64,000 nt of DNA from NCBI GenBank assembly GCA_016840095.1, contig JAEOSZ010000111.1:64001-128000 (forward strand), written 5' to 3'. The DNA comes from Candidatus Heimdallarchaeota archaeon (GTDB lineage: Archaea > Asgardarchaeota > Heimdallarchaeia > Heimdallarchaeales > Heimdallarchaeaceae). Positions 22,029 to 29,157 of this stretch are shown here, piece by piece. Every line of letters starts with the position of its first letter. The first letter of the stretch is position 1. A program made the position numbers and the translations under genes. The notes beneath the pieces are model-generated. The model was given only the letters and a program-made list of their open reading frames with translations, did not search any database and had not been told where the DNA came from.

Positions 22029-22388
22029 CTATCCAGTTATTCTGATGGATAGTACTCCTCTTTTATCTTTGATTACTGAAACTGCTTCATTTGGAGCAAC
22101 TATCGTAAATCCTTTGTTTTTGGTTCCTTTACCAAAAAGCTTAGCCCATTTAAAGTCTTCTCCATTCTCGAATGAGAACATCTTGACACCAACAAAGTTT
22201 TTGTAATCAATTTTATTCATGGTTCTTTCAATAAGATTGAGCTCCTCAGTGTGAGAGAGCCCATCCTCTAGAATCAATATGCTATTCCTCATCACTTTAG
22301 ATAAGATGTAACTGATTTTTTCTTCACTTGAAAGATCATCCGTTTCTGTATATGGAATAAAATCTACTCTATACTTCATCCTTTTCAC
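22029..22388 (-). CDS. oapB: OapB/DUF2073 family protein
   Basis: LSSEEKI..IL, ILEDGLS.EE.LIE.TM and GFTIVAP motifs; overlaps the stop codon of oapA. Confidence 0.8.
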   Translation of the reverse strand: MKRMKYRVDFIPYTETDDLSSEEKISYILSKVMRNSILILEDGLSHTEELNLIERTMNKIDYKNFVGVKMFSFENGEDFKWAKLFGKGTKNKGFTIVAPNEAVSVIKDKRGVLSIRITG

Positions 22389-22999
22389 CTTACCTTCTTA
22401 GCCATTTCGGCTATTTTATTATACAATTGCTCTATGCCATCACCCTGTAACGCAGAAACAGGGATAACATGGTAGTCACAAAAAGCATTTTTGATTTCAA
22501 CTATATCAGCATCAGGTAGATCAATCTTATTTGGAACTAAGATGAAAGGTTTCTTCTGATGTTCCAAGTTACCAATTATCGTAAAGTTTACCTGATCAAA
22601 AGGTGATTTTGCAGCATCTATCACAACGAGTGCTACATCCACATTTTCTAGAAACTTAATTGCCTCCACTATTCCTCTTGTTGCTTCTTTAGCTCTTTGC
22701 ATCGCTTCTCCTGCAGAAAGTCCATGCTTCATGAATTCTTTTGGATTTACAGAGGATGCTATACCAGGCATATCTATTAGCGTAAGATCTAGAGATGTTC
22801 CATTTGAAGAGAAGTTAACCTTCTCAAGCTTCTGAATTGTTCTAGTCTCGTGTGGAATTTCACTGACAGTTCCAACTTCTTGCTCAGCCCAATCTATTCC
22901 AATTTTGTTTGCAAGAGTGGTTTTACCAGCATTTACTTCACCGTAGAACCCCAAATTTATTGATTTTGGCTTTGATTTCAGCCACAATCTCCATGACAA
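22385..22999 (-). CDS. oapA: Era-like GTP-binding protein OapA
   Basis: GEVNAGKTTLAN, VSEIPHETR, DMPG, RAKEATRGI, NKID and SAL motifs. Confidence 0.88.
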   Translation of the reverse strand: MSWRLWLKSKPKSINLGFYGEVNAGKTTLANKIGIDWAEQEVGTVSEIPHETRTIQKLEKVNFSSNGTSLDLTLIDMPGIASSVNPKEFMKHGLSAGEAMQRAKEATRGIVEAIKFLENVDVALVVIDAAKSPFDQVNFTIIGNLEHQKKPFILVPNKIDLPDADIVEIKNAFCDYHVIPVSALQGDGIEQLYNKIAEMAKKVR

Positions 23000-26841: not shown

Positions 26842-27768
26842 TTACCCCCTATTTAGGATAAATGATGCTAGATTTTTTGATATACCTTTTTCATTGAATA
26901 AGATATTCTGTGTTATTACTTCTAAGTTTGTTTCATTTTCTATATCTTTCCTGAAATTTCCGTCCGATTCATGAATAATTATTGTGGAACAAACATCTTT
27001 GTAGAGCCTAGCAATACCTAAAGGAGATACCTCAAGTCCTTTTGCTTTCATCAGATTTTCTGTTGGTCCGCTTATTGGCTTATCCCCTATAATTGGACTG
27101 ATAGCTATACATTTACTCTTATTCTTTTCGAGTGTTTCTCTTATTGCGGATACATCTAATATTGGTCCTATGCTGGTTATGGGATTACTTGGGCCTATAA
27201 TTATTGTATCAGAGTTAACCAATTCTTCTTGTGCAGAACGAGAAAAAATAGCATTTTCCACATTTCTTACATAGATATTCTTTATTTCTGTTTCTCCTTT
27301 ATGTTTAACCCAAAATTCCTGGAAGTGAATATCTTCATCGTTGTTTGTAACTATACGCGTTTCAATGTGGTTTTCTGAACTTGGATAGATTTTACTTCTT
27401 ATTCCTAACTTGTTTATTAAAGAATTAATTATTGAAGACTGGTTCTTTCCGTTCTGCATTTCAAATGTTCTGAAAATATGCAAACCTAAATCTTTGTCTC
27501 CTAATCTGAACCATGTATCTATTCCATATCTGTTTAGAGCATTTAATGTATTGAAGGATTCATCCTTTACGCCCCAATATTTTTCAACATCTAGTAATTC
27601 ACTGAAAAGATAGAGTATTGTGTCGATATCTGGTGAAACATATAATCCATAGATCCAGATATTATCAGCTGAATTTGCAATAATAGCTAGTTTATCATCA
27701 TTAATAATTTCTCTGAATCCTTGTATTAGTTTAGGGGTTCCTGTTCCTCCAGATAGGAAAGTAATCAT
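26842..27768 (-). CDS. cofD: 2-phospho-L-lactate transferase (F420 synthesis)
   Basis: LSGGTGTPKL, SPDIDT, LGDKD, HFQEFWV and GPSNPITSIGPI motifs. Confidence 0.95.
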   Translation of the reverse strand: MITFLSGGTGTPKLIQGFREIINDDKLAIIANSADNIWIYGLYVSPDIDTILYLFSELLDVEKYWGVKDESFNTLNALNRYGIDTWFRLGDKDLGLHIFRTFEMQNGKNQSSIINSLINKLGIRSKIYPSSENHIETRIVTNNDEDIHFQEFWVKHKGETEIKNIYVRNVENAIFSRSAQEELVNSDTIIIGPSNPITSIGPILDVSAIRETLEKNKSKCIAISPIIGDKPISGPTENLMKAKGLEVSPLGIARLYKDVCSTIIIHESDGNFRKDIENETNLEVITQNILFNEKGISKNLASFILNRG

Positions 27769-27796: not shown

Positions 27797-28747
27797 TTAT
27801 TTTTTAGCTGTCTTCTTTGCAGTTGTTGTCTTCTTTGCAGTTGTTGTCTTCTTTGCAGTTGTTGTCTTCTTTGCAGTTGTTGTCTTCTTTGCAGTTGTTG
27901 TCTTCTTTGCTGCTGTAGTTTTTGGTTTAGCTGTAGTTTTTGTTGCTGTTGTCTTCTTTGCAGTTGTTGTCTTCTTTGCTGCTGCTGTCTTTGGTTTAGC
28001 TGTAGTTTTTGTTGCTGTTTTAGCTTTAGTCTCTGGTTTTGTCTCCTCTTTTTGTTTTTCTGGAGTTTCCTTAGGTTTTACTGGTGCAGTTTTCTTTGGT
28101 AGTTTTTTCTTGGGAGTTCCTGTTTCCACCAATCGTAATCTAGAAGTTGATTTTATTACAACTCTATAGTAGGAACCATTTTCTCCCATATCTGGGTTTC
28201 GAACGATTTTGATAACATCACCAGGTTTTGCTTGTATTGCTTTTACTGCAGCATCAGTTTCTAGTATCTTTGGTATTTGATGTTTCTGAATCTGATATCT
28301 TTCCAAGAATCCTTTTATGTCTCTAGTTCTGAGCTTAACATGCTGACGAACTAGTTGATGCTCAAAGATATTAAACAATGGATTAGTGCTACTAATAATT
28401 TCAATTCCTAATTTTACAGATTCCTTTTTTGCATAATGTGTTAATGGGGATTCTGCAATTAGTAAGGCTTCATCTAGTTCCTCTTCTTCTTGTAATTTAC
28501 CTAGAAGTCTGATTAATTTCACACCAATTTGAGGATTTTTTGGGAATCGTGCAATAGCTGTTACTGTTTCTTTTTCCTCACTAAGCTTCTTAGCATATAC
28601 ATCTAGAAAATCATCGTCTTCTTTTGTATCACTAATCTTAAATCCTCTAAACTCAAGAATTTCCTTAACTCCATCCACAATCCTCTTTTCCTTGGCTTTT
28701 TGTTCCTTAGAAGACAAGTAAGTTACCTCGGCATCCTTAATAATCAA
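27797..28747 (-). CDS. rpo5: RNA polymerase subunit Rpo5/RpoH homolog with Rpb5-like N-terminal domain and Lys/Thr/Ala-rich C-terminal tail
   Basis: aa ~125-197 FNIFEHQLV..H..IPKILETD..AKPGDVIKIVR..YYRVV match the Rpb5 C-domain; aa ~20-120 resemble the eukaryotic Rpb5 N-domain; aa ~210-316 are low complexity. Confidence 0.85.
   Translation of the reverse strand: MIIKDAEVTYLSSKEQKAKEKRIVDGVKEILEFRGFKISDTKEDDDFLDVYAKKLSEEKETVTAIARFPKNPQIGVKLIRLLGKLQEEEELDEALLIAESPLTHYAKKESVKLGIEIISSTNPLFNIFEHQLVRQHVKLRTRDIKGFLERYQIQKHQIPKILETDAAVKAIQAKPGDVIKIVRNPDMGENGSYYRVVIKSTSRLRLVETGTPKKKLPKKTAPVKPKETPEKQKEETKPETKAKTATKTTAKPKTAAAKKTTTAKKTTATKTTAKPKTTAAKKTTTAKKTTTAKKTTTAKKTTTAKKTTTAKKTAKK
27810..27910. repeat. 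Coding tandem repeat, 18-nt unit GTCTTCTTTGCAGTTGTT, 5 perfect copies plus a partial one (AKKTTT on the minus strand)
   Basis: Units start at 27810, 27828, 27846, 27864 and 27882; degenerate copies continue to about 28020. Confidence 0.95.
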
Positions 28748-28794: not shown

Positions 28795-29157
28795 TCATTC
28801 TTCTTCTGTTTGAAATTTGATGTAATAAGAACCATCTTTATTTCGACTTATAATTGGTTTAGTGTCACCATTTTCTGTAAGTAATTTTTCTATATCTACT
28901 TCAAAAATTCCTTCACTTGTAAGTCTGATTGCTTCTAGTCCATCTTTTATATCAGTTTGATGAATCTCTTTCTCGACAATAAGATCAAGTTCTTCCTCTT
29001 TCTTCTGGTCAGTAGATCTTTCCTTATAGGTTTTGAATTTAAATGACCCACAATGTGGGCATCCATTAAGTAGAATTTGACTGTTCAATTCAAGTTCTTG
29101 TTCGCATAATGCACAAATTGTGATTTTATTAGATGGATTTGACATATAATCACACAT
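28795..29157 (-). CDS. oapC: OapC/DUF2072 Zn-ribbon protein
   Basis: CALC..ILLNGCPHCGSFKF, EAIRL..GIFEVDI and DGSYYI motifs. Confidence 0.8.
   Translation of the reverse strand: MCDYMSNPSNKITICALCEQELELNSQILLNGCPHCGSFKFKTYKERSTDQKKEEELDLIVEKEIHQTDIKDGLEAIRLTSEGIFEVDIEKLLTENGDTKPIISRNKDGSYYIKFQTEEE

Follow-up and report, generated by a model that had tools for sequence, protein, structure and literature searches.

Eukaryotic Rpb5 (RPABC1) and archaeal Rpo5 (RpoH) are the closest described relatives of the protein considered here, and their solved chains stop at the last strand. Lysine-rich tails that act on DNA have been described on other proteins. In Sulfolobales, the polymerase subunit Rpo13 adjoins Rpo5 and carries a disordered, Lys-rich C-tail of 20 residues (11 Lys in 22) that is required for non-specific dsDNA binding; deletion of the tail abolished DNA binding, and dsDNA was preferred (PMC3479171). 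In Streptomyces, TopA is stabilised on DNA and made processive by its lysine repeats, which recur across many of the DNA-binding proteins in this genus (PMC5714199), and those of HupS are acetylated in vivo, leading to weaker binding (PMC11229371). The actinobacterial repeats of TopA, HupS/HupB, Ku and HrdB combine one or two lysines with Ala/Thr/Pro spacers, vary in copy number and end in acidic residues (PMC5714199, PMC11229371). Here we describe an rpo5 gene from a Candidatus Heimdallarchaeota archaeon, located in a window of 64,000 nucleotides (the whole stretch of DNA analysed, to which all plain positions refer). The jaw and assembly domains of its product align end to end with Rpb5, and the chain then runs 118 residues further than the solved ones, ending in a lysine-repeat tail. 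The part of the literature that was searched yielded no account of a lysine-repeat tail of 70-150 residues on a core archaeal RNAP subunit.

The rpo5 (rpoH) coding sequence occupies 27797-28717 on the minus strand, ending with a TAA stop at 27799-27797, and its translation most likely begins at the TTG at 28717 to give 306 residues. This start is preferred because a Shine-Dalgarno-like GAGGT, read from the sequence at 28725-28729 (minus strand), lies 7 nt ahead of it and because database homologues begin there; a start at 28747 was dropped on the same grounds. An earlier sequence-only reading of this DNA had placed the stop correctly at 27797 but took 28747 as the start and overlooked the ~110-aa jaw domain. 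The gene stands between oapC (28795-29157, minus strand), which adjoins it in 30 of 30 family loci, and cofD (26842-27768, minus strand), which adjoins it wherever family loci reach that far, and the order bpsA-oapC-rpo5-cofD is kept throughout Heimdallarchaeaceae. The region is flanked by oapB and a gene for an OapA-like GTPase (22029-22999) as well as by oapC, and a Dus-like gene sits between the F420 genes cofD and cofC. A scan for sigma-70 promoters returned 9 candidates against 11 expected, that is, no excess.

The window gene is the sole PF01191 match in its source genome (Heimdallarchaeaceae, 89% complete), rpo5 is single copy in the Heimdallarchaeaceae genomes searched, and rpoB and rpoA lie on another contig, away from the window gene and with no rpo5 next to either. 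On this genomic evidence the window gene is the genome's working copy, encoding a regular Rpo5 subunit; a specialised paralogue was considered and ruled out by the single copy. Named Rpo5 homologues come from Ca. Heimdallarchaeota, one of them Heimdallarchaeaceae. In one further genome (G015, 78% complete), which yielded no two-domain gene, a short rpo5 precedes rpoB on a contig of 9 kb; this short gene is probably contamination. Family f11 (L256, L260, L265) has two tandem two-domain rpo5 paralogues, and many f11 genomes give two matches.

Residues 1-110 (28388-28717, minus strand) form a domain homologous to the eukaryotic Rpb5 jaw, with a restriction-endonuclease-like fold according to profile and Foldseek comparisons; Pfam also gave a weak Mrr_cat match here. 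Residues 115-187 (28157-28375, minus strand) are the Rpb5_C assembly domain (Pfam E 1.6e-21, 76.3 bits against a curated cut-off of 23.5), and NCBIfam PRK09570 scored 79.2, slightly below its cut-off of 83. Profile alignment covered positions 10-187 against plant NRPB5A (E 1.3e-31), with human Rpb5 matched as well, and the best Foldseek matches of the structure model (pLDDT 79) were full-length Rpb5 chains (E 2e-13, TM about 0.55). The ESM Atlas yielded only two-domain Rpb5-like clusters, below 0.9. Since Rpo5 of two-domain size is widespread in Asgards, the jaw-plus-assembly form is not peculiar to this genome. Core and tail are linked by an 8-residue motif (residues 189-196; 28130-28153, minus strand), modelled with low confidence as a short helix, which is common to all five Heimdallarchaeaceae genera sampled and was not seen in the other Asgard Rpo5 examined. 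Families f3 and f4 of the same order have an Rpo5 of 440-500 aa (L038-L047) in which Rpb5_C is preceded by apparently three tandem jaw-like domains, the first and second of them separated by a Lys tract, a form for which we found no description.

When Rpo5 was modelled with Rpo1'' and residues 800-905 of Rpo1', the complex scored 0.79, against 0.01 for the best of three controls. Among solved complexes 58 of 80 attain that mark, and among mismatched pairs 2 of 110 do; at least 87% of contacts agreed between runs, with partner pLDDT of at least 81. The docking on Rpo1 that had been presumed from the sequence is recovered in the model; as the pair is a textbook one, this outcome indicates that the complex resembles solved polymerases and is no demonstration of binding. 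In the model the assembly domain provides the docking surface, and the last strand of the Rpo5 core packs against Rpo1' 861-873, a region which we take to lie outside the DNA channel of the polymerase. By a simple length estimate (Rg about 3 nm and contour length 42 nm for a chain of 110 residues), the tail would be long enough to reach DNA from an anchor near this region.

The tail itself (residues 197-306; 27800-28129, minus strand) comprises 110 residues, mainly Thr, Lys, Ala and Pro, with a net charge of +30 and a pI of 10.6. No other Lys-rich low-complexity segment found in the source genome is as long or as basic, and the composition of the tail suggests that it is disordered. The sequence-only reading had recognised a Lys/Thr/Ala/Pro tail of ~105 aa after the Rpb5 C-domain, with near-perfect AKKTTT hexads from an 18-nt tandem repeat, and we confirm both points. 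The perfect array (27809-27910, minus strand) spans 102 nt and consists of five identical 18-nt units and partial flanks, 5.7 units in all by TRF, and AKKTTT occurs six times in the tail. TRF also found a looser 69-nt period across 27809-28019.

Repeats of this kind could be inflated in assembly or hide an earlier stop, and 6 of 24 genus loci indeed end, or have N, within the tail. We examined three public marine-sediment runs from one study, the source sample possibly among them. The 18-nt unit appears there as a 48-nt unitig at about 3-4x flanking depth in all three runs, where about 4 is expected, and one public contig spans the stop codon and the beginning of the array without mismatch; no public contig crosses the whole array, and the copy number of 5.7 is the assembly's figure. 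Repeat multiplicity and stop are thus supported, and with comparable tails in 23 other genomes an artefact is exceedingly improbable: the tail is real and not a misassembly. One public contig has a 3-nt deletion at low depth that may be an error.

Among relatives, a basic tail is found in all 24 genomes of the genus that hold a two-domain rpo5; 18 of these tails are complete, and six are cut by contig ends or N gaps. The complete tails are 73-152 aa long and their repeat units differ: next to cores 73-92% identical to the window Rpo5, main repeat periods run from 9 to 72 nt and differ by clade, and the commonest hexamer is not the same between clades. These comparisons support recent, lineage-specific repeats, consistent with the recent expansion and possible length variation first suggested from the array. 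In a second genus, both genomes begin a basic repeat and the assembly then breaks. Three sister genera have tails of 16-64 aa with charges of -19, -9, -9 and +3, in which acidic residues typically come after a Lys tract, as in the disordered C-terminal domain of Bacillus RNAP delta (PMC9674986), an unrelated subunit whose tail is opposite in charge to that of the window Rpo5. Hodarchaeales-like and other Asgard Rpo5 examined mostly stop at the last strand. A tree joins the two basic-tailed genera with support of 83/81; given this support, a single origin of the basic tail in the two genera is proposed only tentatively, as is the direction of change. Because the basic tail is confined to these two genera, it is not ancestral to eukaryotes. 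Three further observations concern tails elsewhere. Family f12 (L250-L252, L261) has an independent acidic Rpo5 C-tail of 30-39 aa; in P0004 the tail moves into another, Gln/His-rich, repeat reading frame through an assembly indel or a real frameshift; and contig C138 of G000 holds, on its minus strand, a stand-alone, tail-like ORF of about 24 Lys/Thr-rich codons.

The 18 complete tails have a charge per residue of +0.30±0.03 (range 0.25-0.35), and tail charge follows length with an r of 0.93 that is overstated because related genomes are not independent. Tail codons include 762 for Lys versus 2 for Asn (234 versus 2 after repeats are collapsed), and Asn codons are nearly absent even though 39% of four-fold third positions are pyrimidines. 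The tails contain no aromatics and hence no Tyr, Arg makes up 0.6%, and Thr ranges from 7 to 34%. Thus composition is conserved and sequence is not, as charge density is constant, Asn is nearly excluded and the repeat units differ. We infer from these patterns that slippage rewrites the tail while selection keeps its length, disorder and positive charge.

Lysine repeats also occur on Topo VI-B, L35Ae, S3, S4, S11, Alba2 and the DnaG linker, and on this sequence evidence the Rpo5 tail exemplifies a habit of the whole family that is not special to RNAP. The L35Ae linker is equally basic (0.17-0.32 per residue). Topo VI-B, a protein of ~4,200 aa, has a basic repeat tail in all Heimdallarchaeaceae genera; one genome, whose Rpo5 tail is acidic, builds it from the same AKKTTT unit. 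On S3, the distal tail is basic in the two basic-tailed genera, and the remaining genera have a neutral or acidic one; the charge of this distal tail (0.24±0.11) is about three times more variable than that of the Rpo5 tail, with which no co-variation was seen within the genus (rho 0.27). Alba2 tails range from Glu-rich to basic across genomes whose Rpo5 tails all lie at about +0.3, and neither a similar basic tail nor a matching acidic one was found on Rpo6 in the same genomes. Because Alba2 flips, S3 varies more and Rpo6 is tailless, the charge of the Rpo5 tail looks protein-specific.

Several features of these other proteins were recorded alongside. The N-terminal repeat tails of Alba2 (L114-L123, G000 C4:4290-4640) vary within a single genus between strongly acidic and basic, and none was found in the sister genera examined. 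Topo VI-B (L312:2319-14879, minus strand; G000 C4:1-2820) contains many RAD51D_N/HhH-like modules and a conserved QTTL-type motif in its tail, and its gene adjoins that of Topo VI-A and often Alba2 too. L35Ae-like and S4 proteins are joined to HhH domains by long repeat linkers (L166, L164, L200-L225). There are two DnaG primase copies with unlike Lys/Pro-rich linkers (G000 C59:3631-5202 and C44:819-2405), a pair that may reflect bin contamination (7.8%).

Nucleosomal histones (PF00808) were not found in the source genome or in most family genomes searched, and the same holds for most of the f1 and f3 genomes that were searched; related Kariarchaeaceae also lack them (10.64898/2026.07.02.735847; 10.64898/2025.12.06.692711). 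The source genome does encode two Albas and a tailless face-to-face histone of 56 aa (G000 C10:15446-15537; also L270-L280), missed by PF00808 and cut by the contig end, whose best solved match is HTkC (9f2c). The suggestion that the tail displaces chromatin therefore needs rewording, since the chromatin would be of face-to-face histone and Alba and not nucleosomal. Acidic-tailed relatives also have no nucleosomal histone matches, and in the two sister-genus representatives with complete genomes the Albas recur together with a weak match to the face-to-face histone; because the chromatin set is shared in this way, chromatin type alone cannot explain the basic tail. For these reasons we dropped the idea, prompted at first by the PF00808 result, that the tail replaces missing histones. 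In a survey of family f3 (L036-L060), Alba (PF01918) was found in 0 of 12 genomes searched.

How, then, does the tail compare with the systems introduced above? Like the C-tail of Rpo13, which lies near Rpo5, it is a Lys-rich and probably disordered extension tethered to RNAP; Rpo13, however, is a separate subunit in the jaw's place, whereas the Rpo5 tail has about five times the length, is encoded by repeats and occurs alongside a jaw domain. Rpo13 (helix-turn-helix core, PF12136) had no match in the source genome at E 0.1, and the likeness is one of analogy, not homology. As in Actinobacteria, lysine repeats in Heimdallarchaeaceae are spread over many nucleic-acid proteins including a topoisomerase, here Topo VI-B, and the six AKKTTT hexads fall within the actinobacterial pattern of one or two lysines alternating with 3-5 neutral residues, in composition only. 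The actinobacterial repeats have been tied to GC-rich genomes (PMC5714199), whereas here they lie on a core RNAP subunit of a 33% GC archaeon and the tail ends in Lys, not in acidic residues; the likeness is convergent. The Lys/Ala/Pro/Thr composition also resembles that of the histone H1 C-terminal domain and chlamydial Hc2. Two Rpo5 homologues carry a precomputed match to PF07382, presumably the HC2 family, and the window Rpo5 gave no Pfam or structural match to the winged-helix globular domain of H1; this similarity is compositional.

By analogy with the Rpo13 tail and the Streptomyces TopA repeats, we think it somewhat likelier true than false that the Rpo5 tail acts as an electrostatic, non-specific tether to DNA. 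Short in-frame repeats would slip and so make and remake a polycationic tail, and selection would act on its composition, that is, Lys with Thr/Ala/Pro spacers at about +0.3 per residue over at least ~70 residues. Held by the polymerase, such a tail would bind the nucleic acid backbone non-specifically, chiefly DNA near the enzyme. On DNA covered by face-to-face histone and Alba, it could keep the polymerase bound for longer while promoters are sought and as transcription starts and elongates; both the DNA binding and the effect on transcription are proposed from analogy. The tail would then belong to a family-wide set of tethers with Topo VI-B, the L35Ae linker, S3 and Alba2, and lysine acetylation could act as a dimmer on it. 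Several points weigh against a tether. Sister genera manage with short acidic or weakly basic tails, and in the model the core's last strand lies at Rpo1' 861-873, away from the DNA channel. Repeats just as basic are present on ribosomal proteins, and in the two genera with a basic Rpo5 tail S3 turns basic too; the cause may therefore be proteome-wide.

The most serious alternative, which we nonetheless regard as unlikely, is that the tail is a tolerated appendage: slippage lengthens exposed termini across the lineage, selection acts only for solubility, disorder and non-aggregation, which would favour Lys and exclude hydrophobic residues and Asn, and transcription is little affected. In the two genera many proteins unrelated to one another bear repeat tails, the repeat unit turns over quickly and sister genera have short tails, all of which fits this explanation, as does the near absence of Arg, a strong nucleic-acid binder, although histone H1 tails are likewise Lys-rich and Arg-poor. 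Under drift alone, however, there is no reason to expect Rpo5 to keep its charge density fixed when Alba2 tails of the same genomes flip sign, and no complete genome-derived tail of the genus is shorter than 73 aa even though a single substitution makes a Lys codon a stop. Less probable still, in our judgement, is a partner other than template DNA, such as nascent RNA or rRNA, the acidic tails of factors or ribosomal proteins, or nucleoid condensates. A polycation cannot discriminate among polyanions, acidic disordered segments exist in the lineage (the proximal S3 tail and some Alba2 tails), and the anchor point lies outside the DNA channel according to the model and to polymerase structures; against this, the neighbouring Rpo6 has no matching acidic tail, the S3 and Rpo5 charges do not co-vary within the genus, and the Rpo13 precedent favours dsDNA (PMC3479171).

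The sequence-only reading had further proposed a convergent CTD-like regulatory element with Thr and Lys residues that could be phosphorylated or acetylated. On such a view the modified repeats would form a code for specific reader factors. The resemblance lies in tandem repeats on a polymerase subunit, as in the Rpb1 CTD of RNAP II, in a genome whose Rpo1'' ends without repeats and has no CTD. S/T-P-x-K/R sites are in excess when pooled (47 versus 18±4 in shuffles), the source genome encodes three Sir2 proteins and one or two kinase-domain proteins, and HupS repeats are acetylated (PMC11229371); the presence of the Sir2 and kinase genes by itself says little. Unlike the CTD, however, the window tail sits on Rpo5 and not on the largest subunit, is strongly basic and has no Tyr/Ser-Pro heptad. 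Duplicated repeats in a few lineages account for the site excess, 7 of the 18 complete tails have no such site, and the window's own hexad lacks Pro. A residue-by-residue code would need a stable unit, and with no unit conserved within the genus, a variable Thr content and no Tyr, the CTD analogy is unsupported; we consider it highly improbable.

The preferred tether reading and the comparisons behind it bear on the biology of the family in several ways. Within one family, the same conserved Rpo5 core carries long basic, short acidic or near-absent tails, a natural swap set for charged disordered polymerase tails. The lineage stands close to eukaryotes, and most of its genomes that were searched gave no nucleosomal histone. 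The spread of lysine repeats over nucleic-acid proteins in the manner of Actinobacteria arose again in an AT-rich archaeon, and the Rpo5 tail bears nothing on the origin of the Rpb1 CTD. A bolder possibility, to which we give only a slim chance, is that the Rpo5 C-terminus is a tunable polymerase-chromatin interface in Heimdallarchaeaceae, taking the form of an acidic, delta- or chaperone-like tail in some genera and in others of a long polycation whose hold is switched by lysine acetylation and Sir2. If this were true, a modifiable RNAP tail, independent of the Rpb1 CTD, would regulate transcription through face-to-face-histone chromatin.
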